This document shows positions 17,651-43,640 of a DNA stretch of 64,000 nucleotides, one piece after another. The position numbers were made by a program, and so were the translations under genes. The stretch comes from a candidate division WWE3 bacterium RIFCSPHIGHO2_01_FULL_42_13 (GTDB lineage: Bacteria > Patescibacteriota > WWE3 > UBA101185 > UBA10185), in NCBI GenBank assembly GCA_001772625.1, contig MEVA01000016.1:67159-131158 (forward strand), in the 5' to 3' direction. The notes beneath the pieces were generated by a model that was given only the letters and a program-made list of their open reading frames with translations, was not told the origin of the DNA and did no database searches. The stretch's first letter is position 1; each line of letters begins with the position of its first letter.

Positions 17651-17677
17651 CACTAACATTGCAGTGTAAGAAAAGTC

Positions 17678-20688: not shown

Positions 20689-20691
20689 TAG

Positions 20692-21417: not shown

Positions 21418-21480
21418 CTGCAGGCTATATTACTACTAAATTTGGTGCTAGTCTTCTTTCTAGTATAGGCGTGTATTGCT

Positions 21481-22212: not shown

Positions 22213-22217
22213 AGCAC

Positions 22218-23939: not shown

Positions 23940-24007
23940 GGCTACGCTTTTTCTTAAGCAAATATAGACTACCGTATATATGAGAATGCGTCAAATTGGG
24001 TATGTGG

Positions 24008-25291: not shown

Positions 25292-25303
25292 TGGAAAATT
25301 CTA

Positions 25304-26278
25304 TCACGAAAACTGTCTGAAGACTTCATATTTCTGTGATTGCTTAATTAAATCCTCGAGATGATACACGCAAACCCCCATGGACGGACTTTTTATGGCA
25401 TTTTCCAAGGATTGTTTAAATTCTTCTGTGCTAATTTCCCCACCTTCATTTACTGATTGGATTAAAGGCAAAAACGCCTTTCCCAGCTGCCAGTAATACT
25501 CAACCATCTCCCCTATCCAACTTACATCTTTACCTAACATTTTGTGAAAAAGCCCCGGGCTAAAAATATCTATCAAAGGTATAAGCTTACTAAAATCCTG
25601 CGCGACAACTCTTTGAATTCCCGCTCCATAATCTTTATCTTTCCACGGCACGATGAACATTCCCAGTTTTATTTCTTTTCCAGAAGCGGCAATTAACGCT
25701 TTAGCTTCCTCAACAAAAGAAACAACTTGCCCCGCCTTAAACTCCAACCATTCGTGGTAATAACTACCGTCAATATGAAGCGCGATGTTTTGTAATGCTG
25801 TGCCCTCGCCTCCAACTCCCGCAATTGGTTCGCCAATATATTCTTCAAACATCTTAAGACACCTTTCGCAGTAACACGTGTCTAAAATATCCGGGTTAGC
25901 ACTTTCCCAAGATGTCGGGTATCTCATATGGTTTAGCCAAACTCCTTGAACATCGTTCTCCAAAACTCTTTTTATTTCTTCCAAGCGGTTCTTTCTTACT
26001 CCCGGGTGGGTTGGGCATATACCGATTAGCGGATCGCTGATTGTATCTTTATCGTTAGAATCAACCGCTTTTGCGTCAGGGTACTTTTCAAGTAGGTCTT
26101 TCCCGGCAAAAACAATGACACTTGCGTAAATTTCAACTTGTCCAAGTTTTTCTTTTATTTGCGAGGTTGTTTGCGGCGAAATATTTTCGGAACTTACTAG
26201 GACTGAATTTAAATTTAATTGAGAGGCCCCCTCTAAAACAGAATCTTCAACATTTAGTAAAAATCCGGATTTATGCAT
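25304..26278 (-). CDS. Hypothetical protein (324 aa), unknown function; possibly TIM-barrel hydrolase-like
   Basis: Track ORF only. No signal peptide and no recognisable catalytic motif. Confidence 0.3.
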   Translation of the reverse strand: MHKSGFLLNVEDSVLEGASQLNLNSVLVSSENISPQTTSQIKEKLGQVEIYASVIVFAGKDLLEKYPDAKAVDSNDKDTISDPLIGICPTHPGVRKNRLEEIKRVLENDVQGVWLNHMRYPTSWESANPDILDTCYCERCLKMFEEYIGEPIAGVGGEGTALQNIALHIDGSYYHEWLEFKAGQVVSFVEEAKALIAASGKEIKLGMFIVPWKDKDYGAGIQRVVAQDFSKLIPLIDIFSPGLFHKMLGKDVSWIGEMVEYYWQLGKAFLPLIQSVNEGGEISTEEFKQSLENAIKSPSMGVCVYHLEDLIKQSQKYEVFRQFS

Positions 26279-26554
26279 CTATTTCTCCGGTTGCTTCTCC
26301 GGCCAAATTTGATTACCTTGCAAGTCTTCAACAATAATTGCCGTAGTTGGACAGGATTTGGCCGCCTCAATAATATCTACCGCCTCATCCCACGTGCCTT
26401 CCTTAACATACGCAATGCCGTCATCATCTAAATCAAAGGTGCCTGGCGCTCTGATAATACAGGTAGCCGCGCTTATACAAAGTGAATTTATAACTTTTAT
26501 TTTAAGTTTAGAGTTAGGGTTTATTGCGAACTGATTTTGACCGTTTTTGTCCAT
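26279..26554 (-). CDS. Small single-cluster ferredoxin
   Basis: 91 aa. CISAATC...(about 40 aa)...CP cysteine pattern, typical of mono-cluster [3Fe-4S]/[4Fe-4S] ferredoxins. Confidence 0.6.
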   Translation of the reverse strand: MDKNGQNQFAINPNSKLKIKVINSLCISAATCIIRAPGTFDLDDDGIAYVKEGTWDEAVDIIEAAKSCPTTAIIVEDLQGNQIWPEKQPEK

Positions 26555-26565
26555 ATGTTTTCTAG

Positions 26566-28398
26566 TTAACCGCCTAAATAATTTCCAGTATTTATGTCTA
26601 CCGACCTTAATTGTAACTTAGGGCGCTTAAGTAGACCAATAATAAAATTTATTCCGTACACGATATGGGTTAGGATTATTCCTACAAAAACTAAAAGCCC
26701 GGAAATTGGATTTAAGTCTTCAATTGCGACACCTGCGGCTCTTCGCAAGATAAGGAAAAGATAAATTCCCACAACCGTAAAGTATAAATACCACAGCACC
26801 GGAAAGAAACTCGAAACAATTGGGCCTAATACTAACCCTAAAACGAAAAGTGTGGGCATAAAGTAAAATAGCAATCTTGAAGTTTCGGGAAAAAGTCTTG
26901 CAAACTGTCCCCTGTGCTGCCCGTACCGCGAAATTTGTTTTAAGTAGGGCAAGAATATTTTTCTTCTGTGATGGTAAACAATTGGTTTTGGGTCATAAGG
27001 AAAAGGACGCCTAAATTTTTCCACCAAATCTAAACAAAGTTTAGTGTCTTCGCCTGGCCAAAACTCTGTAGTAAAACCACCAACACTTAAGAAGGCATCT
27101 CTTCTTACAAATAAGTTTACGGTCGGGTAATCACTTATAAACTGATGCTTTGTTGGTTTATGCCTAAAAATTGTATTTCCACTCACAAGGCTTGACTCAA
27201 GAAGCTTTCCGGCAATTCTTTCAAGAAAACTGGCTTTCGGAGGTGTTACCGCAGGCGCTCCTAAAGCGTAAGTGTTTGAATTCTTAAAAACTTCGGCGGC
27301 CAATTTTAGCCAATCTTTTTTTGGAAATGCGTCGTCATCCAGAAAGGCGAGAATATTTCCAGTTGCCACACCCGCTCCAATGTTTCTTTTTTCGCCGGGA
27401 CCTTTGTTACCAACAGCTATAAACCTAAATTTATCGCCCAAGTTTAGTTTTTTCTCTTCCACTTCATTAATCTCATCTACCAAAACTATTACTTCAAAAT
27501 ACGGATAGTCGAGTTTAGACAAATGGGCAAGACATTCTCTTAAATCTTTATTTAAACGTCTTGCCGTTACAATTACACTAAATTCGGGCTGTTCAATTTT
27601 TTCAAGTCTAATTTGAGATGCCAAAAACTGAGCGATTTCATGCTGTATCCATTTATGCTCATTGCCATCGTCGTAATATTTCAAAATCTTCAGACGATAA
27701 AAAACAGCTAAGGTGTCGTTCATCATTCGTTGTATGAAAGAGTCCAGGAACAAAAATTTGGAAAAGGTTGTGTGGTCAAAGTTTAGGCTCAGCTCAATTG
27801 GCGCTTCGTATATTCTTCTAAAGCCAAGCCTGTGGGCTACAGCCAACATTTCTATATCAAAAGCAAACTCTTTTATTAAAAGTCTTGGCAAAACCGCATC
27901 CAAAACTTCGCGCTTAAATACCTTAAGACCTGCCTGTGTGTCTGTGAGTTTAAGATTAAATAAAAGCCGCGCAAGGGTGTAATACCCCCAACTGTAAAGT
28001 TTTCGCATAAATGGGTAATTTACTTTCGAAGCCGGATGGCGCTTACTTGCCACAACCACATCGGCCTTGTGCAAAAGCACGTGCTCTAGAAGAGTTGCAA
28101 TACTTTCTAGATTTATATCCACACCTGCGTCAATAAACGCAACATAATCACCACTGGCTTGAGTCATCCCATACTTAACAGCAAACCCCTTACCTTGATT
28201 TTGTTCGTAACCTACAACTTCAACATTATCCTTTTTTACTTTGGAAGCTTCTTCAAAAGTTTTGTCTAAAAGCCCGTCAACTACAACTATGATCTCAAAA
28301 TCCCACTTGGTTTTGGATAAAGCTTTGTGAACTTCTTCAATATTCTTTTTTATGGTCTTTTCCTGCTTATAGGCGGGAATTATTACCGATACTAACAT
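26566..28398 (-). CDS. Two-domain GT2 glycosyltransferase with C-terminal TM segments
   Basis: 610 aa. First GT2 domain VSVIIPAYKQ...IIVVVDGLLDKT...DAGVD. Second GT2 domain FSVIVTARRL...VIVLVDEINE...LDDDAF. Hydrophobic C-terminus. Confidence 0.75.
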   Translation of the reverse strand: MLVSVIIPAYKQEKTIKKNIEEVHKALSKTKWDFEIIVVVDGLLDKTFEEASKVKKDNVEVVGYEQNQGKGFAVKYGMTQASGDYVAFIDAGVDINLESIATLLEHVLLHKADVVVASKRHPASKVNYPFMRKLYSWGYYTLARLLFNLKLTDTQAGLKVFKREVLDAVLPRLLIKEFAFDIEMLAVAHRLGFRRIYEAPIELSLNFDHTTFSKFLFLDSFIQRMMNDTLAVFYRLKILKYYDDGNEHKWIQHEIAQFLASQIRLEKIEQPEFSVIVTARRLNKDLRECLAHLSKLDYPYFEVIVLVDEINEVEEKKLNLGDKFRFIAVGNKGPGEKRNIGAGVATGNILAFLDDDAFPKKDWLKLAAEVFKNSNTYALGAPAVTPPKASFLERIAGKLLESSLVSGNTIFRHKPTKHQFISDYPTVNLFVRRDAFLSVGGFTTEFWPGEDTKLCLDLVEKFRRPFPYDPKPIVYHHRRKIFLPYLKQISRYGQHRGQFARLFPETSRLLFYFMPTLFVLGLVLGPIVSSFFPVLWYLYFTVVGIYLFLILRRAAGVAIEDLNPISGLLVFVGIILTHIVYGINFIIGLLKRPKLQLRSVDINTGNYLGG

Positions 28399-28467: not shown

Positions 28468-29997
28468 TCAATACTCACCTAACCTATAAAGGTATATTTT
28501 GGGGTCTACAAAGATGCTGCCTGGGAAATTTATGGTCTTTTCCTCTATCAGTGTGTCGCAACACGCATACTCCTCGTTAACTTTCTGGCTATCGTAAGAA
28601 AAGTTATATAAATAATCGCGGGGGACATTCCTATAGTTTAGTTTCCACGCGTTTGTGCCTTTAATATACTTCTCCTCTATTCCTTCTGTTTTTGAGATTT
28701 CCTCCGACCTATTCCAAACATATTTATTTACTAAAACAAAATCGTTTGATAGTTGGTATGAGAAAAACATAAGAAATAAAACAAATCCCGAAAGAATTAC
28801 TTTAGAGTACTTACTTTCTTGAAAATAATCTTTTAGCAAAAATAACAAAATGGTTGGAATTAGAATATGAAGGTATCGATCATAGAAAGCTTTTGTAGCA
28901 ATAAGCATACCCGTATAAACTACAGCCAAAACTAAGTAGAGATTTATGGCCTTTCTTTTAAAGACAATGACGTAAGACACAAATATAGGAAAAAGAATTT
29001 TGGAAACTAAGTCCCAGTAGCGATACAAATCATAATTTCCCTTAAAGTAATACTTGGTCCCACTTATACCTCTTGGATAAAACCCCGTGCGCTCAAAAGT
29101 ATTCTCAAAATATGGGAACTCGCCCCAAGAAACTTCATGCGGGTTAAAATTACTAATCATTAAAAAGTATAGCCCTACCGCAAGAGCTAAAAATAACAAC
29201 ACATGCTTTTTTTTACTTAATATCTCTTTTATGTTAACAGAACTTAAAAATACGGGTAGCAAAAAGGCCGTAAGTACAATAAAAGTGCCTATAAACACAG
29301 CGGCAACATAATCTTTATCCAAAAGGTTTTTCCACTGCAGCGGAACCTCAATAATCCTTGGGGTTAGGGGAAATATTTTTTCGTAATAAAAGTAGAGAGC
29401 ACCAAACGTAATAAGACTTACTGCAGCTGGCTTCCAATTTTGTTTGTACGAGTAAAATAATCCAAGGCCTAACGGAATAAAAAGAGAGACCTGCCTTACA
29501 TTCAAACCGGCAAAGACAACAAGGGCCATAAGAGCCAGGTATTTATAATTTTTAGTTTCATCAAACAATAAGATGCACCAAAGGCTTAGTAAAAAGAAAA
29601 ACATAAAATATACCTCTGTCATAAATCCAAAGGTTAAATACATATTTAAAGGATTGAAAAAATAAATGAGCCCCACTAACACGGAGGTCGAGAATTGCTT
29701 TTTCATTCTATACAAAATAAACGCTGACAACAGGTAAAAGTTAGCGACAGAAAAAAGCAAAGTTAAAATGGGCAGTTTTTCTAGAGAGAATATTCTTGCA
29801 AAGCCTGCAGCAATCAAACCTTGGGTGTAAAACGTGGGGCCAGTGTAGGGGTGCAGAGTAAAATCCCCCTTCATAAACCTTGAAACCATTTCATAGTAAA
29901 CCCAATCATCATTTTGATAAAAATCTATTTTGTTTGAAAGCGTAAACACAAGCATAAAAAGAGCCAGTGTTATAAGCAAAAGCCATAATTTCTTCAT
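28468..29997 (-). CDS. Polytopic membrane protein, GT-C-fold glycosyltransferase-like (ArnT/PMT-type)
   Basis: 509 aa, about 11-13 TM segments. Extracytoplasmic first loop with acidic motif (YQNDDWVYYE). Confidence 0.45.
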   Translation of the reverse strand: MKKLWLLLITLALFMLVFTLSNKIDFYQNDDWVYYEMVSRFMKGDFTLHPYTGPTFYTQGLIAAGFARIFSLEKLPILTLLFSVANFYLLSAFILYRMKKQFSTSVLVGLIYFFNPLNMYLTFGFMTEVYFMFFFLLSLWCILLFDETKNYKYLALMALVVFAGLNVRQVSLFIPLGLGLFYSYKQNWKPAAVSLITFGALYFYYEKIFPLTPRIIEVPLQWKNLLDKDYVAAVFIGTFIVLTAFLLPVFLSSVNIKEILSKKKHVLLFLALAVGLYFLMISNFNPHEVSWGEFPYFENTFERTGFYPRGISGTKYYFKGNYDLYRYWDLVSKILFPIFVSYVIVFKRKAINLYLVLAVVYTGMLIATKAFYDRYLHILIPTILLFLLKDYFQESKYSKVILSGFVLFLMFFSYQLSNDFVLVNKYVWNRSEEISKTEGIEEKYIKGTNAWKLNYRNVPRDYLYNFSYDSQKVNEEYACCDTLIEEKTINFPGSIFVDPKIYLYRLGEY

Positions 29998-30037
29998 ACT
30001 ATAATGATATACTTTCTCAGGAAGCTACGAAAGAGAA

Positions 30038-30787
30038 ATGAACTATAAAGAGTATGAAAACATGGAAAAATTCGAGAAGAGCTACTGGTGGCATAGAGGC
30101 CGCCTTTATTTGCTGGAAAAATTAATTAATTCCCACTTCCAAAAAAAGAGAGGTGACGCCCAGCTACTTGAGGTTGGGTCTGGAACTGGCGAGACCGTTA
30201 AGTTTCTATCTAATTTCGGAAAAGTTACTGGGATCGACGTTTCAGAAAGGGCCGTTGAGTTTTGTAGAAGTAAAGGATTAGAAAATATAATTCTGGGAGA
30301 TATAAATGAGCTTGACCTTTCGGAACACAAAAATACGTATGACGCTGTTTTTGCCCTTGATACCATGGAGCACATACAAGATGACGTAGGGGCAATGAAA
30401 AGGATAAACGAGATGTTAAAAGAGGAGGGACTTCTCTTTCTTACCGTTCCCGCACACAAATTCTTATGGAGTGAGCATGATGAGGCGCTTCATCACAAAA
30501 GAAGGTATCACTCTCTTGAACTTTTACAGAAACTTAGAGACGCGGGGTTTGAGCCAATAAAAAAATCGTACTTTGTTTTTACGGCATTTTTTCCCATCTT
30601 GTTTTTTAGAACCTGGAATACCGTGTTTGGTAGAAGCGCCTACCCAAAAACTTCGTATGTAATGCTACCAAAAATCCTCAATGACTTTGCAACAAACGTT
30701 TTGAAATTAGAGGCAAAGATCATTCAAAAGATAAATTTTCCTATAGGGACAACGATTGTAGCGGTTGCAAAAAAGCCTAAGATTTAA
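30038..30787 (+). CDS. Class I SAM-dependent methyltransferase
   Basis: 249 aa. LLEVGSGTGETVKFL, FALDTMEHI, and LKEEGLLFLTVP. Confidence 0.8.
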   Translation: MNYKEYENMEKFEKSYWWHRGRLYLLEKLINSHFQKKRGDAQLLEVGSGTGETVKFLSNFGKVTGIDVSERAVEFCRSKGLENIILGDINELDLSEHKNTYDAVFALDTMEHIQDDVGAMKRINEMLKEEGLLFLTVPAHKFLWSEHDEALHHKRRYHSLELLQKLRDAGFEPIKKSYFVFTAFFPILFFRTWNTVFGRSAYPKTSYVMLPKILNDFATNVLKLEAKIIQKINFPIGTTIVAVAKKPKI

Positions 30788-32033
30788 TACTTTTTATAAA
30801 ATAGATCCCAACACCTAAAAGAAGGGCAAACGAAATTGCCAAATTCACATTCACTACACTTACCAAACTTTCATGATGAAGGGAAATTAAAATGACTTGC
30901 AATGTAATTGCAGGGAGAAGTAAAAGGACAACCTTGGTTTTTTCTACAGCCAAAAAGAACAGTATCATAAAGTTTATTAACACATACATGCCAACAAAAA
31001 TCGAAAACCTTGGTAAAAGTTCTGCAGAAGCAAGGTAGGAGGCACCAAACATTACCCGTGTAATAAAATTTGGCATTAAAGTAAAAACGACAACGCCCAC
31101 AATTACCACCATAATTTGTAAGATTAACAGGGGCCTAAATTTTTCTAAAACATCTTCGCCATTACCATAAGCTGAAGAGATCGTAGGAAACATAACAACT
31201 CCTACTGTGCTCGCCCCAAACAACAAAACTTTCCCGGTTGTAACTAAGCCCGCGTATAACCCAGCCGATGTTTCGTCAAAGAAATGTTTCACTAGCACAA
31301 TATCAATATTATTCAAAAGAGTTAATCCAATCTGTACAAAAAGAACGGAACCAGCAAAGGCAAGTACATTTTTATAGTAATGTTTTAAACTTACATCATC
31401 CGACTTTAAAAAGTGCTTACTCAACATCCATGTTCCAATTAAATAGGACCCAGCAAAAGACAAACCCATTCCCACAAAGGCCCCTGCCAGCTTAAACCCC
31501 GCCATGACAATTAAAACTGGGATGATAAGCCTTAGAAACTGGGTCGATACCGAAAAGGCAGCATAGGCTTTAAACTTTAATAAACCCTGCAAATAAGCGA
31601 TGGGAAGTATTACCAAAAAAGAAAGTCCGAGAAAAGCCCCAAAGTAAATAAGTAGGTTGGGGTCGGAAATACTTAAAAAACTCGCGAGTTGCTGACGGAA
31701 AAGAAATATCAGTGTAAACAAAAGAGACCCAACACCCAAAACTACGGTTGAAAGTTCCAGAAAAATACGGGTAAGTGTTCCGTATTTATTTTGTGTAGAA
31801 AGATTAGAAACAAGTTTAATTAATGAAGTTGTGAATGAGGTTGCCAGCACTCCTAAAATAACATAAACGGATAGAAGCGCTGTAAAAGTTCCAAAATCTG
31901 AAACCGAAAGCCATCGCCCAAGAAAGATTTGCAGAAGATAAGCAAAAACGCTTCCAATAAAAGAACCGGCCGTAACTATAACGACTCTGGAAAACGCGGG
32001 ATTTTTGATTAAGTTTCTTGCACGGGTAATCAT
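30777..32033 (-). CDS. Wzx-like polysaccharide flippase (MOP/PST family)
   Basis: 418 aa, about 12 TM segments, PST-family-like N-terminus. Assigned from architecture and context. Confidence 0.5.
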   Translation of the reverse strand: MITRARNLIKNPAFSRVVIVTAGSFIGSVFAYLLQIFLGRWLSVSDFGTFTALLSVYVILGVLATSFTTSLIKLVSNLSTQNKYGTLTRIFLELSTVVLGVGSLLFTLIFLFRQQLASFLSISDPNLLIYFGAFLGLSFLVILPIAYLQGLLKFKAYAAFSVSTQFLRLIIPVLIVMAGFKLAGAFVGMGLSFAGSYLIGTWMLSKHFLKSDDVSLKHYYKNVLAFAGSVLFVQIGLTLLNNIDIVLVKHFFDETSAGLYAGLVTTGKVLLFGASTVGVVMFPTISSAYGNGEDVLEKFRPLLILQIMVVIVGVVVFTLMPNFITRVMFGASYLASAELLPRFSIFVGMYVLINFMILFFLAVEKTKVVLLLLPAITLQVILISLHHESLVSVVNVNLAISFALLLGVGIYFIKSIKS

Positions 32034-32034
32034 A

Positions 32035-33726
32035 TTACTTACTTATATCCCGGGCAGTGTTTTCGTACACATTATAAATTGGAACACCTCGAAGTTTTAC
32101 CTGTCCAATAAACCTAAACGGGTCTTCAGGTTCGGATTCGTCAAACCATACAGGGTAAATAAAAAACTGGGCTTTTCTTGAATCGAAATCAATGCTGGAA
32201 ATTGTGGCCCAGGCACCCATTCGCCTTACAAAGGGGTGCAGTTGTGTGTAATACTTCTCCGGAAAAGCCACAACCAGGCGGTTTTGCAACACATCGGCCG
32301 TATCATATATATCTTCGCCCGGCCCAAAATCCTGCAAACTAAGTTCGTACTTTTTAGCTTCCAGATATTTTATTAATTCGAAATGGCCAATTACCCATTT
32401 TGGTTCAAGCATCCAGATTCCGTTTTTCAGTCCACCAGTTAACGGACTGTAATACGAAAAATAATCCGGATGGAGAACTGCCAAAGTTGTAAAGGCAGGT
32501 ATTAATAATACTATTCCAAACAGCGCGAAGGCGTTAGAAACTTTTGAAAACCTTCCCACAAGTAGATGTAACATTCGTTCAAAAAACAGTGACGCAACTA
32601 AACTTAATGCAATTAAGGAAGGTAAAATATATCTATCAAGTTTTTTTGATGGAATTGAAAGTTCAATAATATAAAATAATGCGTATAAAAGCGTAAAGGT
32701 CGCAAACTTTTTCTGCCTTTTATCAAGTTTTGGAAAAACCACTAACGAACCTAAAAGGCCAATAATTAAATACAAAGACGATCTTAAAACCAAAACTGCC
32801 CAATAAAACACCGGCCCCGGATCCTCCACCCATTTTCCAAAGAAAAGCTGAATATGATCGCCCTCAATTCCAACATCTACTATCCCTTTTTGAAGCACGG
32901 TGAGGGCTTGAGGCGCGTTTGTCCACATGGCAGGCCAAAAGGCCACAAAGGCAACAATAAAAGTTGCGAGCCATAGTAAGTACCTAGAAAATGCCCATTT
33001 TAAAGCCTTCGCAAAGCTCCCTGTTTCCCACAGGCGGTATCCAAACAGCAACAAAGCGGCAAAAGGCACAATAAAAAGCGCCGAGGTTTTAGTAAGCATC
33101 GCCAATGCCCCAAGAGCAGAAGATATAAATAGCCATTTTTTTCGCTCTTCTGTGGAAACATACATGTAGAGAGTTAAAAACGAGGCAAGCATGAAAGTCG
33201 CCTGCAAACCCTCAAGGTGGACAACCCGGGTTAAAGCAACGTACAAAGGCTCAAGCGCAAAAAGTGCGACGGCAATTGAGGCGTACTTTATATTAAGGAC
33301 TTTTCGTAAAATGTAGAAAATAAAAGAGATTAAAATCCCAAGAGCTAAAACGATAAATAGCTTTTGGGTAAAGTGGAGCTGAAACAAAGCGTTTATATCA
33401 TTATCTTGCGGGTTCGTTCCCGTAAAAACTCGGTACGCAAGGTTATGAAACTTCACAGCAATTGCCCCAAGCCACATTAAAGTTACTCCTGGGTGATACA
33501 TTTGAATAGTCTTTGCAAAATCTAATGTGAAAACGCCCGTTCCAAAATCGTAAATTCTCTGCTTCCACTTCCACTCGTCAGTTGTGAACATGTCGTAGCC
33601 CAGGCTTGGCAACCGCGTCAGTACAAACAGTACAAAAACGTATATTTCGTATTTAATTTTCCTGATTTTGTTCAAAAACATAGATAAAAACGTACGGGCC
33701 CCTTCTACCCTGCGTGCTAACCTCAA
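32035..33726 (-). CDS. GT-C membrane glycosyltransferase, ArnT/PMT (GT39/GT83)-like
   Basis: 563 aa polytopic protein. First loop FTTDEWKW. Blocks (YHPGVTLMW, ALEPLYVALTRVVHLEG, LAMLTKTSA) shared with 35133..36689. The annotated start overlaps the upstream gene by 74 nt, so the true start is probably the internal Met (MFLNK, about 33681). Confidence 0.55.
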   Translation of the reverse strand: MRLARRVEGARTFLSMFLNKIRKIKYEIYVFVLFVLTRLPSLGYDMFTTDEWKWKQRIYDFGTGVFTLDFAKTIQMYHPGVTLMWLGAIAVKFHNLAYRVFTGTNPQDNDINALFQLHFTQKLFIVLALGILISFIFYILRKVLNIKYASIAVALFALEPLYVALTRVVHLEGLQATFMLASFLTLYMYVSTEERKKWLFISSALGALAMLTKTSALFIVPFAALLLFGYRLWETGSFAKALKWAFSRYLLWLATFIVAFVAFWPAMWTNAPQALTVLQKGIVDVGIEGDHIQLFFGKWVEDPGPVFYWAVLVLRSSLYLIIGLLGSLVVFPKLDKRQKKFATFTLLYALFYIIELSIPSKKLDRYILPSLIALSLVASLFFERMLHLLVGRFSKVSNAFALFGIVLLIPAFTTLAVLHPDYFSYYSPLTGGLKNGIWMLEPKWVIGHFELIKYLEAKKYELSLQDFGPGEDIYDTADVLQNRLVVAFPEKYYTQLHPFVRRMGAWATISSIDFDSRKAQFFIYPVWFDESEPEDPFRFIGQVKLRGVPIYNVYENTARDISK

Positions 33727-35158
33727 AAACCTGGTCTAAGCCTTCTGTTGCAGCCAACTCCTTACCTATCTCTCCTGTATCCAAACCTAATACAACATAA
33801 CCTTTGCCAAAAGATAAATCTGCACCAACTACACCCTTCTCTACCTCGTTTCGTGAAAACTTTTCCATGACCGGCAGAAAACTACTAGTGTTATAAACAA
33901 TCCTATCGTTTGGATTTACATTCTCAAGCATCCATTCGTACGTAATTTCTCTAGTATCCTTTCTTACCAAAAGCAAAACGGTTTGTATCGAAATCCAAAG
34001 TGGAACCAAGAAAAGTAAAATTGGGATTAAATACCGCCATTTACTTTTTATCATTTCCATAAGATGTACTATTACAAAACCGCAAGCAAGAGCCACAAAT
34101 GGATACGCCGAGGTGTAATAGTGTGCACGTGTTTTATCAAAACCTGAAATATAAAAAAACAAAAACAACGATGGAATTAAAATTAACCAAATTTCTTTTG
34201 TTCTTTTGACAAAAATCGCATAAAAAATCGTTAGCATGTACAAAAGTATGAAAATATATCCAAAATCACGGGCAAACTCAGAAGTTAGAGCCTGAAAAAA
34301 CTGCACAATTTGCTGCCCAAACCCTACTTTTCCAACATTTGTAAACTGCCATAAGGCACCTTTTGGCCCGTCAGTACGGATAAAAGTATCGAAATCAAGA
34401 ACTGAGTAAGGAGTTCCTAAAATGAAACCTAACCCTGCTACCAAGCCTGAAAGTACCAGAGCTTTGACTCCGTGCCAATCTAAAAGTTTTTCATTTGGAG
34501 ATTTCCAGGTTCGCAAGAAGTGGGCGGCAGGAATCATAGCGGCCATTAAGCCTCCGTTATATTTTGTTGAGGCTGCAAAACCAATAAACAATCCCGCCCA
34601 TAAATAGTTTTTTAAATCTTTTTCCTGAAATATCTTTATTGAAAAGTAAAAGGCCCACGCAACCCAAAAAGCAGTCGGGATATCTATAAGTGCGAAGGGT
34701 GAAGTTTGAACATGGAACGGTGTAATCATTAGAGCAAAAGCTGCAGCCAGCCCCACACTTCGGTTAAACAGCTTTTTGCCAGCCAGATAAACTGGAATTG
34801 CCGTTAAAGTCCCCATAAACACATTGAGTAGTCTGGAGAGAAAATAAAAGATTAACGGGTCTCTCCACATTAGCGGGAAGTATGCACTTAAAGATTCCTG
34901 CAAACCAAAAACCTGCAAGCGGATTCTAAATTTTATGTACAGAAAATGAAGGAAGTAGTTTAGGTACAGATGTAGGTGGGGCCAGTCGAAGTGGGCTGGG
35001 TTTGGGTCAAACCTAAGCCCAATCGCCGAGCGCACCACTGCGGGCTCATCGGGGTGGAAAATAAACGGGAACCCGTGCTCTACACCGGCAACTCGGAGGC
35101 CAAAACCGACCAAAAGTATTATTAGCAATATTTTATCGAACTTTAGCTTCCTTAACAT
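33653..35158 (-). CDS. GT-C membrane glycosyltransferase, ArnT/PMT-like (DE motif in first loop)
   Basis: 501 aa polytopic protein. FHPDEPAVVRSA in the first periplasmic loop, and ASTKYNG. Confidence 0.55.
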   Translation of the reverse strand: MLRKLKFDKILLIILLVGFGLRVAGVEHGFPFIFHPDEPAVVRSAIGLRFDPNPAHFDWPHLHLYLNYFLHFLYIKFRIRLQVFGLQESLSAYFPLMWRDPLIFYFLSRLLNVFMGTLTAIPVYLAGKKLFNRSVGLAAAFALMITPFHVQTSPFALIDIPTAFWVAWAFYFSIKIFQEKDLKNYLWAGLFIGFAASTKYNGGLMAAMIPAAHFLRTWKSPNEKLLDWHGVKALVLSGLVAGLGFILGTPYSVLDFDTFIRTDGPKGALWQFTNVGKVGFGQQIVQFFQALTSEFARDFGYIFILLYMLTIFYAIFVKRTKEIWLILIPSLFLFFYISGFDKTRAHYYTSAYPFVALACGFVIVHLMEMIKSKWRYLIPILLFLVPLWISIQTVLLLVRKDTREITYEWMLENVNPNDRIVYNTSSFLPVMEKFSRNEVEKGVVGADLSFGKGYVVLGLDTGEIGKELAATEGLDQVFEVSTQGRRGPYVFIYVFEQNQEN

Positions 35159-36689
35159 AAACCTTCCAATATTCTAAACCATTTATCCACATAGTATGGT
35201 CGAGAATAAAATTATAGTTTGAGTCCAAAACTTTCTGAGGAATTTCTTCGTTAACCCCGAGTACCAACAAGTCGTAATTTCTGGTTCCATCAACTCTAAT
35301 ATCAAAAACTCTCGAAGCTTTATAAATTGCTTCCATTGGTTTTACATCTATAAATCCTAGTGTCGGATAGTAACCATATTTTTCTAGAATTTGATCTCTT
35401 AGTGCCACTATTCCCACACCAAAAGGTTTCTGCGCCAAAATATTCTCATGAACATATTGAGGTGAACCAAAAAGAGGGTTGGTATAAGTAAAGTGGTATG
35501 GATACAGACTGAAAAATGGATGCAAAACGAAGGCGGCAAAAAATATCGATTGAACACCAACTAAAGCTTTGACCGCTAATGCCCCAAATTTCGTCTGTAA
35601 GTATTCCTTAAGCTGATAAAAACCTATCACTGCTAAAAGCGCAAAATATGGATACATGGGCAGTAGGTATCGGTCAATTTTTTTACTAGAAATTGTCATC
35701 ACTACCAAATACCCCACGAAAAATATTGTCAAGAAGGCACTTAGGGATGGGGCTTTGAAATCCGGTTTTTTGACTCTAAGTAGGCTTAAAACAAGCATAA
35801 GAAGCAAAAAAGGCGAGGTTTTAAGCAAAAATACCAATGGGTAAAAGCTCACTCCCCCATCGCGGGTGTCTTCACCAAAGATAATTTGATTGTGCCCGCT
35901 TCTAATCCCAACCCGCTCTATACCGTCATAAATTCCCAGTAAAACATCTTTTGTATCAACCCAAAGAGCTGGCAAGAAAATTACAAACGCGAGAACAGCC
36001 GGAATAAAAATAGAGAGTTTAAATTTTACTGCCTCTTTCCAACCTTTTTGCAGAAATACATAAAGCCCACCAACACCAACCGCAAAAAGGAGTCCCCCTA
36101 CTGCAACGCTTTTCGTAAGAAAGGCCAGCGCCAAAAATATTCCGTCTAAAATTCCCATATACCAATTGAACTTCTTAAGGTGTAGGTAAGTAAGGAGCAA
36201 ACCAATAAAAAGAAGTAACGTTAGCAAAATATCCAAATGAAGTACCCGTGAATTTGCAAGAAAGAAAGGCTCCATCGAAAAAATAAAAGACGTTAGCCAC
36301 GCTTTATTAAACCCAACAATTTTTGTCAAAAGAAATATCCCCAAAAGTGAGAGGATGAGCTGAACAAAAATAAGCGCGATTTTAGCTACATAGTCAAAAA
36401 CTAAGAATGTACCTTGATTGTATTTAATGTCACCATTAAGCTGCTTCACCAGCTCAACGGTTGGTCCAACGATCCACATTAGCGTTGTACCAGGCTGGTA
36501 GTGCTGGTAGGTCCTTTCCAACTGCCCGAATTTTAAGCCCACCATAAACTGCTCGGATCGCCAGTGCCAGTTTACGGCGTCTGGATTAACCACGTCATCA
36601 TAGGTTCCTGGCACCCTTGTAGCCAAAAAAACCAACACAAACAGCGCGATGAGTAAATACTCTTTGTTAATTTTCTTTATTAAATACAT
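35133..36689 (-). CDS. GT-C membrane glycosyltransferase, ArnT/PMT-like, paralog of 32035..33726
   Basis: 518 aa polytopic protein with YQPGTTLMW, SMEPFFLANSRVLHLD and LAFLTKSVA. Confidence 0.55.
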   Translation of the reverse strand: MYLIKKINKEYLLIALFVLVFLATRVPGTYDDVVNPDAVNWHWRSEQFMVGLKFGQLERTYQHYQPGTTLMWIVGPTVELVKQLNGDIKYNQGTFLVFDYVAKIALIFVQLILSLLGIFLLTKIVGFNKAWLTSFIFSMEPFFLANSRVLHLDILLTLLLFIGLLLTYLHLKKFNWYMGILDGIFLALAFLTKSVAVGGLLFAVGVGGLYVFLQKGWKEAVKFKLSIFIPAVLAFVIFLPALWVDTKDVLLGIYDGIERVGIRSGHNQIIFGEDTRDGGVSFYPLVFLLKTSPFLLLMLVLSLLRVKKPDFKAPSLSAFLTIFFVGYLVVMTISSKKIDRYLLPMYPYFALLAVIGFYQLKEYLQTKFGALAVKALVGVQSIFFAAFVLHPFFSLYPYHFTYTNPLFGSPQYVHENILAQKPFGVGIVALRDQILEKYGYYPTLGFIDVKPMEAIYKASRVFDIRVDGTRNYDLLVLGVNEEIPQKVLDSNYNFILDHTMWINGLEYWKVYVKEAKVR

Positions 36690-37623
36690 ATAGAATTCCG
36701 CCGAACAAGCTTACGAAAAGTCGCAGCAAGTGATAAATGATGGAGGCACTTAGAGCCAGTTCCACCGGAACACCCGAACTTGAAAAAAATTGTATAAAAA
36801 GTGCATCTTGAACTCCTAAACCATTTAACGATGGGATGAAAAAAGTGGCGAGTGCTATTACTGGAAAAACGAACAAAGAATATGTGATAGGAAAAGTGAT
36901 GCCCATGGAAACAAAAACAAAATATTGCGTAAAAATGCTAAGAAGCTGAATTACAAAGGACGTCAGGAAAGCGCTCAACAAAACACCCCTCCTGTCTTTG
37001 TAGACAAGTAGGGAGTTATAAATTTTCCCTAATATCCCAATTTTCTTGGAAAGGATTTTTAAAAGCAGGAAGGCAACCGCAACTCCAATCCAAAATCCAA
37101 AAAACACAAGAAATTTAAAAAAGGTTAGATACAAACTGTTGTCGGAAATGATCTCGGGCAACTGCTCAATCCAAAAGTCTAAGGTTCTTGCTAAACCAAA
37201 GTACGAAATTAGAACAAGCGCCATAACACCTGTAAACCTCTCCATAAAGGTTGCGGCAAAGGCATCGGTCTTACTCCCAATCTTCTTACCTAAAGCAAGA
37301 ACTTTGTAAACATCACCCCCAACGCTTGTGGGCATAAAGTTATTGAAAAAGGCACCTACAAAATAAAGGTGGGTCAAATACTTAACGGTAACTTTTTCCG
37401 AACTTTTATGTATAAGTAGGGACTTCCATCTGAAGGCACCAATCAACCAGTTTAGAATTATGAATAGGATTGGCAGGGGCAGATATCTTATATCAACTAG
37501 TTTAAAGTTGCTCAAAACATCAGCGAAATCAATGCGTGAAAAGATAACTCCAAATAAAACCGCGCTGATTAAAACCTTAAGAATTATCTGCCATTTTTTC
37601 TTATCCATTATTTTCTGCTCCAA
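36667..37623 (-). CDS. Flippase-like membrane protein (lysylphosphatidylglycerol-synthase TM-domain family)
   Basis: 318 aa, 8 TM segments. N-terminal KVLISAVLFGVIFSRIDFADV...LIGAFRWKSLL is typical of this family. Confidence 0.5.
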   Translation of the reverse strand: MEQKIMDKKKWQIILKVLISAVLFGVIFSRIDFADVLSNFKLVDIRYLPLPILFIILNWLIGAFRWKSLLIHKSSEKVTVKYLTHLYFVGAFFNNFMPTSVGGDVYKVLALGKKIGSKTDAFAATFMERFTGVMALVLISYFGLARTLDFWIEQLPEIISDNSLYLTFFKFLVFFGFWIGVAVAFLLLKILSKKIGILGKIYNSLLVYKDRRGVLLSAFLTSFVIQLLSIFTQYFVFVSMGITFPITYSLFVFPVIALATFFIPSLNGLGVQDALFIQFFSSSGVPVELALSASIIYHLLRLFVSLFGGILYVFNKEN

Positions 37624-39079
37624 GAGAAATAGTTTTCAACTTTCTAAGTCCTGCCTGCACATCTTCCTTTGTCACAAATTTGAGCAAAAACACTAAAGCA
37701 ATGTAAATCCCACTACCCAAAAGGTAGGTTAGGATTTTCGTCATATTAAAATCCGTATAAACCTGCAAACTTATTACTAGCCCAACAATTATAAGGATGG
37801 CATGTTTCAATCGCAGAAAAGAAAATCCAAGCTTCCTCCAGGAGAAAAAGGCCAGTACGACAAGGTTTGTAAGCACCCCAAAAACCATAGCGTACGCCAT
37901 GGTCACTAAACCTCCCCATACACTATTAAAAGCGAAGTAAAATCCAACAGTTAAAACAAGCATAAACAAAAATCCCACAATCATTTCCTTTACCATTTTC
38001 GCTGGAACTAGAATGCTGGACATAACAATATTTACCACCGAGTAAAATATAAAGGCAAAAACTAAGGGCAGTACAAATGGAAACGATCCGTCATACTTTT
38101 CGCTTCCAATAAGAAGATGGAAAACATCTCGAACCCAGAAAACCGCGGTAACTGCTGCAAACACTATAAAAACAAAAACCTTATCAAAGTTTCCAATGAA
38201 TAAACTTTTAAACTCCTCAATGTTTTCAACAAATTTTTTCGACAGAACCGGAAGATTTATATCGGTTACTGAATCTGAAACAGCCATTAATTTTGTAGCG
38301 TAAAGCAAAGCAAACCCAAACAGACCTATTTCCTCCGGTGAATAACTAACACCCAACAAAAGCGGGCCTGACTTCTGCCAGTATGTAACAATTATTTTCA
38401 CAACATAAATTGCAAGGCTGATAGACAGAATATCCCTTAGCAGTCGCCTAAAATCAGCCTTTTGCGGCCAAGCGAAGCTGCCCTTGAGCGGGCCCAAAGC
38501 CATTACTCCCAGGGAAAGCGAGGCAAGAATGTTAAAAAGTATTAAAGAGTAAAAAAATCCGTCAACTCTGTACAAATAAATTAAAGGTATATAAATAAAC
38601 AAACCGGCAATCGCAATAATTACTTGGTAAGTAAAAAGTTGTTTGAACCTTTGAGTTCCTGAAATAACAGAATTAAAAATACTTTGTACGCCTTGGATTA
38701 ACAATACAAAAGCAAAAAGTTTAAGGGGAACTATTAGCGCGGGATTTCCATATTGTATTACGGAGATATACCTGGAAATAAAAAACAATATTACGGCCAG
38801 GGGAATTGTTACGAAGTATCTAATGACAACCGAGGTTAAAAAAATCTCAAATATCTCTTTATTGTTTTTTGCTGAAGAAATTTCCCTAGTACTGCCGGAG
38901 GCTAAGCCTAAGTGTTGATAAATACCAAAAGCTCCCCCAATTGAAGTTGCCAAGGTTATCAACCCATACTCACCCACACTCAAAATCCTTACAATAACTA
39001 TGCTTTGAACAATTCCTACCGCCATGGCTAAACCACGCGAAATAAAGCTTATTGCCTGCCATTTCAACAAACTTTTCAT
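37601..39079 (-). CDS. Wzx-like oligosaccharide flippase (MOP superfamily)
   Basis: 492 aa, about 14 TM segments. N-terminus SFISRGLAMAVGIVQSIVIVRILSVGEYGL is typical of polysaccharide biosynthesis/Wzx proteins. Confidence 0.6.
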   Translation of the reverse strand: MKSLLKWQAISFISRGLAMAVGIVQSIVIVRILSVGEYGLITLATSIGGAFGIYQHLGLASGSTREISSAKNNKEIFEIFLTSVVIRYFVTIPLAVILFFISRYISVIQYGNPALIVPLKLFAFVLLIQGVQSIFNSVISGTQRFKQLFTYQVIIAIAGLFIYIPLIYLYRVDGFFYSLILFNILASLSLGVMALGPLKGSFAWPQKADFRRLLRDILSISLAIYVVKIIVTYWQKSGPLLLGVSYSPEEIGLFGFALLYATKLMAVSDSVTDINLPVLSKKFVENIEEFKSLFIGNFDKVFVFIVFAAVTAVFWVRDVFHLLIGSEKYDGSFPFVLPLVFAFIFYSVVNIVMSSILVPAKMVKEMIVGFLFMLVLTVGFYFAFNSVWGGLVTMAYAMVFGVLTNLVVLAFFSWRKLGFSFLRLKHAILIIVGLVISLQVYTDFNMTKILTYLLGSGIYIALVFLLKFVTKEDVQAGLRKLKTISLGAENNG

Positions 39080-41205
39080 TTAACTTCCACATTTCCTAAG
39101 TAGATACTGCGCGTGCGAATATCATTAGAAATACCCACAAATGCCTTGTATGTCCCTGGCTCTACAAATTCCGGAAACCTAACCTCGTTTATTTCTGCAA
39201 AGTATCTGCCGGTAGACCACGTTTTAGGTTCTGATAGGGCAAAGGACGGTAGGTTGGGTAGTTGATAAACTTCACCGGTTTCAGCGTTTACGAAAGTAGT
39301 AAAAACTACATAATCATCCAAAGGCTTATCCACCTTTCTGATAAATGTAAATTGTGTGTTATAAGTTTGGCCGCGGACAATTTCAGATGGAATTGAGTAA
39401 TCAACAACATACAATCCCTCAAAAATCTCCAAGTTAACTTTCTCGTCAAAAACAAACGATTCCTGAATCGGCAAGGCGTCAGATTTATCATGCAGGCCAA
39501 CCCTTTCAAAAATAAACAGATTTCCGCAAGCTGTGTGCAAACGGTAATTTTCATCTTTTAAGACATTTCCAACAACCTTATTTATCACATCCTGTTCCAA
39601 ATCCAAAAGCTCAACAACTTTTAGCGAAAATACGTCCACAATCACATAATCAGCTGAATTATAAAGGGCTGGGAATATGGCGTAGGTTTCTCTCATAGAA
39701 AGGTATGCTCCTAAATAATCAGGTCCAGAAATTGAAGCGTTTTCTGGTACAAAATCTATAACCGCCCTAGCGCATTCTCTATCTCTTCTTTCAAATTCCG
39801 CAAGTCTAAACCGCTCACCAATTTCCAAATCTCTCTCTAGTACTTCTTTGCTATCCTCAAATATTGTTCGGGCAAAAGCGAGTCGGTTTAGTCTTTTCTC
39901 AACCGCCTGATTAAACCAAAGGTATATTGGGTTCCCATACGAATAAGAGAGCACTAAGTTTGAGACAACAAGTACAACGCACAGAACACCGGCGATATAA
40001 ACCCTTTTTAACTTTGAGTACGACGAAATAAGACTAGCCACATAATTTATTCCGTAAAGAGATGCTAAAAACAAAATCGGAATAATCATTGAGATTCGGT
40101 GATTAAATATTTCAGAGGTTCCGACATTTCCGCCAGTTATCGCATAGTTTATAACAAGCTCAGGAATCGCAATAACAAAAAGTGGCGGGTACAGAAGCGG
40201 CGCGTATAGCAGAGGGTCAAAGGTCATTCTCATATTTTCAGGCTTATCACCATTAAAAAGTACCCGTGCCGCTTTGCTGGGGTTTGTGATCAGACTCGTT
40301 GCAATCTCAGTATAAGAATTTCCAAGCTCTTCATACCTTCTCAAAAAGTAATTTTCGTCCCCAACGTCTTGGTCTGTATCTGCTTTGATTCCTAAATCCT
40401 GAGCAAACCTTTCATACCCTGCTATTCTCGCGGATGAGTAAGTGGGAATGATCACAAAAAAGGCTAGGACAAACCACAAAAGACTAACTACCATCATTTG
40501 CAGGCCTAACTTAGCAATTTTTGTGGAAATAAAAGATTTTATATCTTTAAATACACCGTTTCTGAAAAACAAAATAAAAAGTCCTAACATAAAAATGAAC
40601 AAAGGAAGCTCTTCTTTTCCTGACATAGTAATTACTAGCAAAATCCAAAACCAGAACATTCTTTTTTTAGAGAAATTTTGCTCATGGTGCATCTTTTCAA
40701 ATAGATAAAATGCGCCAAGGAAAAAAGGTATGGCTAGTGTAACGCCGTGAAATGCCGTCCAAGCAAGCACAAACCCCATGGCCGGATATAGCAGATAAGC
40801 CAAGCCCATCAACAACGCCAGTACTTTATTCTTCATTTCAAGTTCCGCGATTGCGTAAATTAACAGTGAGGAAAAGGTGACTATCACAAGTTGAAAGAAT
40901 ATCAAAGTTAGAGGAGACTTAAAAATAAGGAAAAACGGGAGGGCTAAAAGAATTATCGGATCCACGTGGCTCATGCCCCATCTAGGCAAATTAGTTCCAA
41001 AGTAATCAGTAAGGTACATGAACCTGCCCTGGGTAGTATTCCAAATCATTTGTGTCATATTTCCCAGGTCAAATTTCCCTAAATCAAAGTTGTTGTAGCG
41101 GAAAAGATTTATTTTCGCGGCCAGAATAAAAACACCTAAAGAATAAGCAATCAAAAATAAAAAAGGCCAATTTTTTAACATGGAGTCTTTTAATTTTATA
41201 AACAT
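39076..41205 (-). CDS. Large polytopic membrane protein, DUF2079-like (GT-C-related)
   Basis: 709 aa. FDLGNMTQMIWNTTQG near the N-terminus and a C-terminal soluble domain. Confidence 0.45.
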   Translation of the reverse strand: MFIKLKDSMLKNWPFLFLIAYSLGVFILAAKINLFRYNNFDLGKFDLGNMTQMIWNTTQGRFMYLTDYFGTNLPRWGMSHVDPIILLALPFFLIFKSPLTLIFFQLVIVTFSSLLIYAIAELEMKNKVLALLMGLAYLLYPAMGFVLAWTAFHGVTLAIPFFLGAFYLFEKMHHEQNFSKKRMFWFWILLVITMSGKEELPLFIFMLGLFILFFRNGVFKDIKSFISTKIAKLGLQMMVVSLLWFVLAFFVIIPTYSSARIAGYERFAQDLGIKADTDQDVGDENYFLRRYEELGNSYTEIATSLITNPSKAARVLFNGDKPENMRMTFDPLLYAPLLYPPLFVIAIPELVINYAITGGNVGTSEIFNHRISMIIPILFLASLYGINYVASLISSYSKLKRVYIAGVLCVVLVVSNLVLSYSYGNPIYLWFNQAVEKRLNRLAFARTIFEDSKEVLERDLEIGERFRLAEFERRDRECARAVIDFVPENASISGPDYLGAYLSMRETYAIFPALYNSADYVIVDVFSLKVVELLDLEQDVINKVVGNVLKDENYRLHTACGNLFIFERVGLHDKSDALPIQESFVFDEKVNLEIFEGLYVVDYSIPSEIVRGQTYNTQFTFIRKVDKPLDDYVVFTTFVNAETGEVYQLPNLPSFALSEPKTWSTGRYFAEINEVRFPEFVEPGTYKAFVGISNDIRTRSIYLGNVEVK

Positions 41206-41208
41206 ACT

Positions 41209-42405
41209 TTAGCTCTTACGAATTACTACCTTATCATAAACTTGATCAACCTTCTTGGCCATCAAATGCCACGAATAATTGCTTCTAACAAAGCCTAAAT
41301 CGGCGGAAATGCCGCTATCTAGCACCTCCTGAACTTGCTTAGCAATACTTTCCGCGGAAACTTCACGCAGATAAACCAAGCCCTCAATTTTCTGTGAAGT
41401 TTCAAAACCTGATGCGAGAGCTGGAACTCCACATGCCAAACTTTGCAATACCACTTTTGGTAAACCCTCCCAGTCAGAGGGCAGTACAAAGATATCCGCG
41501 ATTTGAAATACAATCGGAACCTGTGGGTAAGGTGTATAACCAACCCTAACTATTCTATGATCTAAATTATACTTCGAGGTAACATCTAATATTTTACTTT
41601 CGTATTCTTCGTCACCGTGAGGCCCCACCAAAAGAAGCTTGTAATTAGACGGCAAAAATCTTAACGATTCTATAAGAAGGTGAATATTCTTTCTTTCGAC
41701 AATCGCACCATTATTTAAAATTACTTTATCGTGCGGGGCAAGACCCAGCTCTCCTCGCGTCTTTACTAACTCTTCAGGCCCAATAGGTGTAAATAACTCG
41801 GTGTTTACGCCTGTTTCTACAACAAAACACTTTGAGGGATCGGTGTTGTAGTGCTTTATTGCTTCATTTTTAGTTTCCGGGCTTACAAAAATACAAGCGT
41901 CCGCGCTGCCGATAGCCCATCTATCGGACATTTGCGCAAGTGGCCAACTTAGATATCTTGAAATAGCTTTGATATTTTTATCCTGACCCTCTAATTTTTC
42001 CCACCTGCCTTTTACCGTGTTATGAAAATGGGCTATCAGGGGAACTTTGAGTTCCTTTGCTCCTGGAAGAAATTTTTTTAGGAAAAACCTATATGCATAA
42101 ATCCAAATTGCGAAGTGACCGTGCGAGTGAATCACATCAGGTCTATTTTTTAATCGCCAGAATAAGTAATAGAAAAACACAATCAGTGAAGTGGTTATAC
42201 TTAGAGTTCCCCGTAAGGGCTCACGAAGAAACGGGTGAAGTTTAGCTCCTTTTAAAGTCTCGATTGGTCCGGCAAATGGCCATCTACCGCAAAACACATC
42301 TATTTCATGCCCAAGCTTTACCTGGGCCGAAGTCATTTCATATGGAGCTGGAGCTAGGCCGTCCCATGGCGGAGGCCAGTCGTAAACAATTCTTAGAATT
42401 TTCAC
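41209..42405 (-). CDS. Glycosyltransferase family 4
   Basis: 398 aa. EGLPKVVLQSLACGVPALAS motif. Confidence 0.75.
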   Translation of the reverse strand: MKILRIVYDWPPPWDGLAPAPYEMTSAQVKLGHEIDVFCGRWPFAGPIETLKGAKLHPFLREPLRGTLSITTSLIVFFYYLFWRLKNRPDVIHSHGHFAIWIYAYRFFLKKFLPGAKELKVPLIAHFHNTVKGRWEKLEGQDKNIKAISRYLSWPLAQMSDRWAIGSADACIFVSPETKNEAIKHYNTDPSKCFVVETGVNTELFTPIGPEELVKTRGELGLAPHDKVILNNGAIVERKNIHLLIESLRFLPSNYKLLLVGPHGDEEYESKILDVTSKYNLDHRIVRVGYTPYPQVPIVFQIADIFVLPSDWEGLPKVVLQSLACGVPALASGFETSQKIEGLVYLREVSAESIAKQVQEVLDSGISADLGFVRSNYSWHLMAKKVDQVYDKVVIRKS

Positions 42406-43583
42406 AAGATAACCTCATTAAAAACTTTTTCGTACTTATCAAGCATAACATCAAGGGTGAATTCTTTTTTTGCCTTTTCGAACGCTTTTTTTCCCATCAC
42501 GTTTCGCAACTCTTCGTCTTCGGAGAGTTTAAGTATTGCGTTTTTAAGTTGGTCTACATTTCCAGATTCATAAATAATTCCCGTTACTCCATCTTCAATC
42601 CCTTCCGGAATTCCACCCATGTTTGATCCAATAACAGGAACTTGCGCAAGCATTGCTTCAACAATGCTCATTGGAAATCCCTCAACACGACGAGAAGGCA
42701 AAACGAAAATATCCGACTCTCCCAAAAGTTTCATAGATTCTTTGTGGGGAATACGGCCAAAAATATGAATCTTATCCAAAAGCTTCTTTTCTGAAACCAT
42801 CTCTTTCAACCCCATCAAGTGAGGGCCGTCTCCAACTATGGTAAGTTCGACTTTCTTGTCCCGAATCTGCCCCATCGCGACAACTAAATCAGCAAGACCC
42901 TTTGACCTGTGGATAAGTCCGACATAAAAAAGCCTAACGACCCCATCTTCTTTTTTGGTTCGTGCAATATCTTCATCAATTCCATTGTAAATAACCACAA
43001 CCTTACTTTCGTCAACAAAAGTTTCGTCAATTAAAGCCTGTCTCACAAACTTAGAAACCGCAATAACTTTATCCGAATGCAAAACAAATTCACGCTGACG
43101 GTTAAAGAAGTTAAGTAGAAAGTATGCTGTGTTGGGAATTAATTTTATGTAATCTTTTGGCGAACTTAAACTTTGCAAAAGCGTTTTGTACTCACCCGTT
43201 GTTGTTCCATGAGAAATAGAAACAACCGGAACACCCAACTCATTTTTCTTCATCACCAAACCTAACGCCGCGGAACTTTGTCCGAGAATCAAATCAAATT
43301 TTTCTTCTTTATAGGATTGTTTGAAAGCTTCTACTGAACGGTTGATCCAGTTATTCTTATCCAAATAACCAAAGCCTCCCAAGCTTCTGTAACTACAATC
43401 AATAAACTTATAGGAAACACCGTTTAATTCTTGGGAATCGGTGTTTAACTCCTGTTTGGGGGCGAAAATAGTGATTTTGTGCCCTCTTTTGGCTAAACCC
43501 TCACATAAGGCCTTATTTTGAGTCTCTAAACCCCCAAAACCCTCGTGCAAAGTTGTTTTCTTTATAAAAACGGCCACGTTCAT
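42402..43583 (-). CDS. Glycosyltransferase family 4
   Basis: 393 aa. EGFPMSIVEAMLAQVPVIGSNMGGIPE motif. Confidence 0.8.
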   Translation of the reverse strand: MNVAVFIKKTTLHEGFGGLETQNKALCEGLAKRGHKITIFAPKQELNTDSQELNGVSYKFIDCSYRSLGGFGYLDKNNWINRSVEAFKQSYKEEKFDLILGQSSAALGLVMKKNELGVPVVSISHGTTTGEYKTLLQSLSSPKDYIKLIPNTAYFLLNFFNRQREFVLHSDKVIAVSKFVRQALIDETFVDESKVVVIYNGIDEDIARTKKEDGVVRLFYVGLIHRSKGLADLVVAMGQIRDKKVELTIVGDGPHLMGLKEMVSEKKLLDKIHIFGRIPHKESMKLLGESDIFVLPSRRVEGFPMSIVEAMLAQVPVIGSNMGGIPEGIEDGVTGIIYESGNVDQLKNAILKLSEDEELRNVMGKKAFEKAKKEFTLDVMLDKYEKVFNEVIL

Positions 43584-43611: not shown

Positions 43612-43640
43612 TAGGCATTTTTGAAGAAATGTCCTATAAT
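43612..43640 (+). promoter_or_regulatory. Sigma70-like promoter candidate: -35 TAGGCA (43612..43617), 17-nt spacer, perfect -10 TATAAT (43635..43640)
   Basis: Read directly. It is about 42 nt upstream of the ATG at 43683, which has AAGGAGGG with a 7-nt spacer. Confidence 0.35.

Follow-up and report, generated by a model that had tools for sequence, protein, structure and literature searches.

The window analysed here is a 64,000-nucleotide stretch of DNA from candidate division WWE3 (Patescibacteria/CPR), a lineage whose cell surface has, to our knowledge, never been studied. Between positions 28468 and 41205, eight of the nine ORFs encode polytopic membrane proteins, with 6-12 TM segments predicted in a Kyte-Doolittle scan. 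An earlier note on this DNA had claimed that nearly all genes here were of this kind, counting among them five GT-C proteins, two MOP flippases and an LPG-synthase-TM protein, and had pointed to two giant GT-C-like proteins and two polyprenyl-P-sugar synthases elsewhere in the window; each of these assignments was borne out by the analyses described below. The ORFs were confirmed at the coordinates given here, all on the minus strand except a methyltransferase gene at 30038..30787. ORFs abut or overlap on one strand, promoter-like sites are fewer than in shuffled sequences, and a promoter/terminator scan found no convincing terminator. Together, these observations support an operon structure.

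The conserved membrane block begins with 39076 (39076..41205, minus strand, 709 aa; ORFs are named by their first coordinate), which encodes a DUF2079-family GT-C glycosyltransferase (Pfam DUF2079, 129.8 bits). Its N-terminal module has about nine TM segments, for which the AF2 model (pLDDT 87.3) gives about 11 helices, and its extracytoplasmic C-terminal region is mixed alpha/beta with a beta-sandwich at the end. All 15 Foldseek PDB matches to this model at E<=1e-3 were GT-C enzymes (AglB, DPY19, STT3, ArnT); the terminal sandwich was similar to the Wzt carbohydrate-binding domain, but also to generic beta-sandwiches. Three further GT-C glycosyltransferases encoded on the minus strand have Pfam PMT or PMT_2 matches. 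The PMT/PMT_2-like protein 35133 (35133..36689, 518 aa) exceeds the cut-offs of both PMT (29.5 bits) and PMT_2 (29.3 bits); 33653 (33653..35158, 501 aa), a PMT-like (GT39-like) protein with an HPDEP motif in its first loop, does so with 48.0 and 52.2 bits, respectively, and its ortholog profile matches yeast Pmt1 (6P25_A) with E 2.1e-13. The PMT_2-like protein 32035 (32035..33726, listed with 563 aa but probably starting at Met16, near 33681) scores 33.1 bits against PMT_2 (cut-off 26.1) and weakly matches TIGR03663 Agl23, under its cut-off (E 1.5e-7). It is 28% identical to 35133 across 487 aa (E 1e-31 to 1e-38), and we take the two to be ancient paralogues. No MIR domain and no STT3-type oligosaccharyltransferase signature were found with Pfam or NCBIfam.

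The fifth GT-C-fold glycosyltransferase, 28468 (28468..29997, minus strand, 509 aa), lies between Wzx1 and a double GT2 gene. It has no Pfam match of its own, but many PF13231 (PMT_2) proteins are among its homologues and its AF2 model has a clear GT-C fold; in the fold searches, 34 GT-C matches came first and transporters appeared only at Foldseek probability <0.1. Its divergent partner is the plus-strand gene 30038..30787, encoding a SAM-dependent methyltransferase (Pfam Methyltransf_11/23/25). At locus L004 a homologue of this methyltransferase (57% identity) is again divergent from a 28468 homologue, and the operon of L044 is without it. The two genes form a relocatable accessory cassette that stands outside the conserved operon.

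As a GT-C signature, the acidic motif of the first periplasmic loop was scored in alignments of 22-44 sequences, and the first-loop Asp is kept in every GT-C candidate, either invariant or at least 90% conserved. In 39076, F40, G43, K44, F45 and D46 are invariant (42 sequences); in 35133, P36-D37 in this loop and H63-Y64-x-P66 (24-29 orthologues); and in 32035, D50, within the motif N-T-D, and Y77-H78-P79-G80 (27 sequences). For 33653, D37 is invariant and E38 at least 90% conserved; 28468 has D30-D31, and D34 is at least 90% conserved in the family of the giant protein 1151.

Three putative flippases are interspersed with these enzymes on the minus strand. A Wzx-type MOP flippase of 492 aa and about 12 TM segments (37601..39079; Pfam Polysacc_synt_3 E 1.2e-19, Polysacc_synt E 2.7e-12) has orthologues at 28 loci. 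A second, of 418 aa and about 11 TM segments (30777..32033; Polysacc_synt E 3e-14, Polysacc_synt_3 E 2.3e-13), closes the conserved block and has orthologues at 22 loci, being missing from L009 and L019. The substrates of both may be polyprenyl-PP-oligosaccharides instead of monosaccharide donors. The third, 36667 (36667..37623, 318 aa), is a stand-alone MprF-flippase-like protein (LPG_synthase_TM / COG0392) that matches Pfam PF03706 over its full length (147.2 bits) and the TIGR00374 'flippase-like domain' over its cut-off (80.9 bits), with no aminoacyl-PG synthase domain detected by Pfam. Residues N94, N95, P98, G102, G103, D104 and R129 are invariant in 30 sequences, and in all compared loci the gene lies between Wzx and PMT-like genes. 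We regard it as a candidate flippase of polyprenyl-P-sugar. Its cargo could also be an ordinary phospholipid, and a search with its ortholog profile failed to recover the solved MprF sequences. Phospholipid flipping is the sole characterised activity of LPG_synthase_TM proteins (PMC5898192).

Two giant proteins are encoded on the minus strand at 1151..4840 (1229 aa) and 5154..8585 (1143 aa), and each gene is followed by one for a small protein of about 115 aa with 3-4 TM segments (804..1181 and 4813..5157). The giants are paralogues (34% identity), in which 6-9 predicted TM segments at the N-terminus are followed by roughly 700 aa of soluble sequence and a C-terminal TM. Neither has a Pfam match itself (PF11847 only at E 0.17), but 15 of the 27 members of their family match PF11847 GT-C_AftD (best E 4.7e-12); judged through these relatives only, both giants are AftD-like at the family level. 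Between them and the membrane block lies the part of the supercluster that Pfam and NCBIfam matches assign to tailoring and cytoplasmic assembly (8575..26554, minus strand). It contains three GT4 domains, one of them in an epimerase/dehydratase fusion (17678..19915), two GT2, five SAM methyltransferases (one on the plus strand), a second epimerase/dehydratase, an NTP_transf_5 protein, two unknowns, an HpnJ-like B12 radical-SAM enzyme (22218..23939) and a ferredoxin (26279..26554). The order GT2x2-ferredoxin-unk324-rSAM is kept in relatives.

Candidate donor synthases flank the block on both sides. The minus-strand gene 47652 (47652..48773) encodes a Dol-P-Man-synthase-like GT2 with a fused GtrA-type TM domain (Pfam GT2 plus GtrA_DPMS_TM). 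It matches P. furiosus DPMS (5MLZ) over residues 1-330 of 373 with E 3.5e-41, UniProt names it dolichyl-phosphate beta-D-mannosyltransferase, and we assign it as a polyprenyl-P-hexose synthase by homology. The adjoining 46882 (46882..47673, minus strand) is a soluble GT2 of the polyprenyl-phosphate glycosyltransferase type, with DPMS (E 5.9e-17), ArnC (E 6e-14) and GtrB (E 1e-10) as its closest solved relatives; its top NCBIfam matches, ArnC, Dol-P-hexose transferase and PpgS, are all under cut-off. The double GT2 protein 26566 (26566..28398, minus strand), with two GT2 stretches in Pfam and three C-terminal TM segments, resembles DPMS 5MLZ (E 4.8e-14) and GtrB (E 5e-8) in its N-terminal half, and its homologues are two separate ORFs in L019, L035, L026 and L009. 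Cytoplasmic enzymes lie beside the block as well: two GT4 glycosyltransferases (41209..42405 and 42402..43583, minus strand; Pfam Glyco_transf_4, Glycos_transf_1) whose synteny is kept in 20-23 loci, a further GT4 identified by Pfam and synteny (44332..45498, minus strand), and a UDP-glucose 6-dehydrogenase for UDP-glucuronate supply (45512..46870, minus strand), with all three UDPG_MGDP_dh domains and 470.8 bits against TIGR03026, over cut-off. A small monotopic phosphoglycosyl transferase (PGT), predicted to prime polyprenyl-P, is encoded on the plus strand (43683..44285; Pfam Bac_transf 196.6 bits, TIGR03025 237.7 bits over the C-terminal domain), immediately downstream of the top promoter-like site of that strand (43612..43640), and its homologue in L044 is also on the opposite strand at the equivalent position. 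Pfam recognised no Wzy polymerase, chain-length regulator, LCP ligase or ABC exporter within the window; a Wzy_C-PMT fusion gene lies just past its edge.

The order of the seven-gene block, DUF2079-Wzx-LPG_TM-PMT×3-Wzx, recurs in 21 genomes that each represent a species, where the proteins are 40-60% identical, and in the closer relative L044, which is more than chance would give; the same genomes share the longer order GT4-GT4-GT4-[GT-C+GT2]-DUF2079-Wzx-LPG_TM-PMT×3-Wzx-[GT2]-GT2x2-...-rSAM. Between loci, pairs of a GT-C gene with a GT2 or methyltransferase gene are gained and lost. Within the 13 kb, this conservation covers the seven-gene block, but not 28468 with its methyltransferase. The novelty for the lineage that the earlier note thought possible must be narrowed: our literature search found no published description of this operon, but WWE3 bacteria conserve it as a trait, and glycosyltransferase abundance in WWE3 was already noted in 2013 (PMC3812714).

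The region probably supplies the membrane enzymes at the core of a supercluster, more than 48 kb long, for a cell-envelope glycan. On the outer face of the membrane, its operon most likely assembles a cell-surface sugar polymer or decorates one. We give a probability of about 0.7 to the reading that several three-component modules (polyprenyl-P-sugar synthase, flippase and GT-C enzyme) have been grafted onto a PGT/GT4/Wzx envelope-glycan pathway. The biochemical steps, sugars, donors and acceptor proposed here are inferred from gene content, folds, motifs and gene order. On the cytoplasmic face, 43683 would prime polyprenyl phosphate, GT4 and GT2 enzymes would extend the lipid-linked oligosaccharide with sugars supplied or tailored by the UDP-glucose dehydrogenase, epimerases and methyltransferases, and the Wzx-type flippases 30777 and 37601 would move the lipid-linked intermediates outward. 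In parallel, 47652, 46882 and the DPMS-like N-terminal GT2 half of 26566 would load single sugars onto polyprenyl phosphate, and one or more of three flippases (the GtrA-type domain of 47652, the protein 36667 and a Wzx) would bring these donors across the membrane. Outside, the conserved set of GT-C enzymes (39076, 35133, 33653 and 32035), along with the accessory 28468 and the AftD-like 1151 and 5154, would transfer sugars successively to the growing glycan, each using the Asp of its first outside loop. As acceptor, a polysaccharide anchored in the wall or the membrane is most probable, hinted at by the large extracytoplasmic beta-rich domains of the DUF2079 and AftD-like proteins and by the Wzy_C-PMT fusion; surface proteins are the main alternative. 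The machinery of this uncultured bacterium with its tiny genome is of a known kind, but unusually densely packed.

Protein O-glycosylation of the O-mannosylation type, in which the PMT-like trio and the Dol-P-Man-synthase-like enzyme would modify secreted or surface proteins (for instance pilins, S-layer proteins or sortase substrates) in the manner of actinobacterial Pmt/Ppm1 or archaeal AglS/AglD/AglR, seems to us improbable, although several observations are consistent with it. Both 33653 and 35133 score over the Pfam PMT (GT39) cut-off, the former with a first-loop D-E pair and the Pmt1 profile match; 47652 is a full-length DPMS homologue; 32035 and 35133 are ancient paralogues, like the heterodimeric Pmt1 and Pmt2; and there are several weak NCBIfam matches to archaeal Agl23, AglJ, AglG and AglM. 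Glycoproteins or a glycosylated S-layer were, moreover, proposed for WWE3 by Kantor et al. 2013 (PMC3812714). However, MIR domains and STT3-type signatures are lacking, the operon encodes no candidate acceptor protein and is embedded among PGT, GT4 and Wzx genes in a polysaccharide-type cluster that also has AftD-like enzymes and a Wzy_C fusion, and seven or more GT-C enzymes are far above the known needs of protein O-mannosylation. That polysaccharide context, with two Wzx, one PGT and several GT4/GT2 in the window, would also suit a conventional Wzx/Wzy-type exopolysaccharide or capsule locus, where some GT-C-like proteins would be block polymerases or ligases using polyprenyl-PP-oligosaccharide donors instead of monosaccharide transferases. 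The PMT-like domain fused to Wzy_C and the best structural matches of the DUF2079 protein, the oligosaccharyltransferases AglB and STT3 with their PP-linked donors, point the same way. We nevertheless find this quite doubtful, given three DPMS/ArnC/GtrB-like synthases, makers of monophosphate-linked donors, three proteins that pass PMT/PMT_2 and not Wzy or Wzy_C thresholds, and the missing chain-length regulator and outer export component.

Equally doubtful is an ArnT/MprF-like modification of lipids or glycolipids, in which lipid head groups would receive sugars from the GT-C enzymes, or these would make an LM/LAM-like lipoglycan, and 36667 would flip the modified lipid. PMT_2 is the family of ArnT, the AftD-like enzymes of mycobacteria work on lipoglycans and arabinogalactan, UniProt names 35133 'ArnT-like' and both 28468 and 33653 'RgtA/B/C/D-like', and the UDP-glucose dehydrogenase gene adjoins that of the ArnC-like GT2. 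The characterised phospholipid flipping by LPG_synthase_TM proteins fits as well (PMC5898192), but WWE3 is without lipid A and LPS genes (PMC3812714), 36667 has only 318 aa and no synthase domain, and the PGT/GT4/Wzx content indicates a polyprenyl-PP-linked glycan. That the membrane proteins are transporters or permeases instead of glycosyltransferases, as their polytopic nature and low similarity to characterised enzymes might suggest, is scarcely credible beside the fold-search ranking and the first-loop Asp conserved in all GT-C candidates.

The preferred reading, of three-component modules on an envelope-glycan pathway, can be compared with several known systems. Protein O-mannosyltransferases (GT39; eukaryotic Pmt1/2/4, actinobacterial Pmt) share the GT-C fold, the Pfam PMT matches, the loop 1 D-E pair of 33653 and a DPMS-like donor enzyme, but the WWE3 locus has no MIR domain, has three paralogues plus other GT-C families and is set in a polysaccharide-type context. 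In archaeal N-glycosylation, a neighbourhood of COG0392/arCOG00899, PMT/STT3-like genes (arCOG00563, Agl23-type) and AglD-like GT2 has been published, along with Haloferax AglD/AglR/AglS (PMC5898192). Common to both are a stand-alone MprF-flippase-like gene beside genes for PMT_2-like GT-C and DPMS-like GT2 enzymes, and a Wzx-like protein, an AglM-like UDP-glucose dehydrogenase and methyltransferases in one locus; the WWE3 donor synthase is closest to archaeal DPMS. The host here, however, is bacterial, the AglB/STT3 oligosaccharyltransferase is absent from the locus, and the Agl model matches are far under cut-offs, so that none of the WWE3 genes is an Agl orthologue. In the assembly of mycobacterial and corynebacterial arabinogalactan and LM/LAM (EmbA/B/C, AftA-D, MptA-C, PimE; Ppm1 and DPA donors), many GT-C enzymes likewise work one after another outside the membrane and draw on polyprenyl-P-sugar donors. 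Also shared are AftD-like giants whose extracytoplasmic domains are large and a polyprenyl-P-mannose-synthase-like enzyme encoded nearby. In contrast, WWE3 are Patescibacteria with genomes of about 1 Mb; their locus is without GT87 or Emb-type Pfam matches and without DprE or UbiA-type arabinose-donor genes, its giants match the AftD model only via relatives, and it uses Wzx, not an ABC exporter.

The three-component systems themselves include Shigella/Salmonella GtrA/GtrB/Gtr*, Firmicutes CsbB/GtcA/YfhO and GtlA/GtlB, group A Streptococcus GacI/GacK/GacL and Citrobacter youngae ORF15/ORF14/ORF12, some with MOP/MATE flippases (PMC11127046). Shared with WWE3 are the GT2 polyprenyl-P-sugar synthase, the flippase (GtrA-type, or MOP/Wzx-type in GacK and ORF14), the GT-C transferase and the location in a polysaccharide locus with PGT and Wzx. 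Where those systems have one GT-C enzyme, WWE3 has four to five in tandem and seven or more per supercluster, and its locus combines three flippase types. The gain and loss of GT-C pairs between loci resembles that of the serotype-converting modules; only the 28468-methyltransferase cassette and the extra PMT_2+GT2 pair, however, act as variable modules in WWE3, where the block is conserved class-wide, whereas theirs is a strain-variable serotype-converting add-on.

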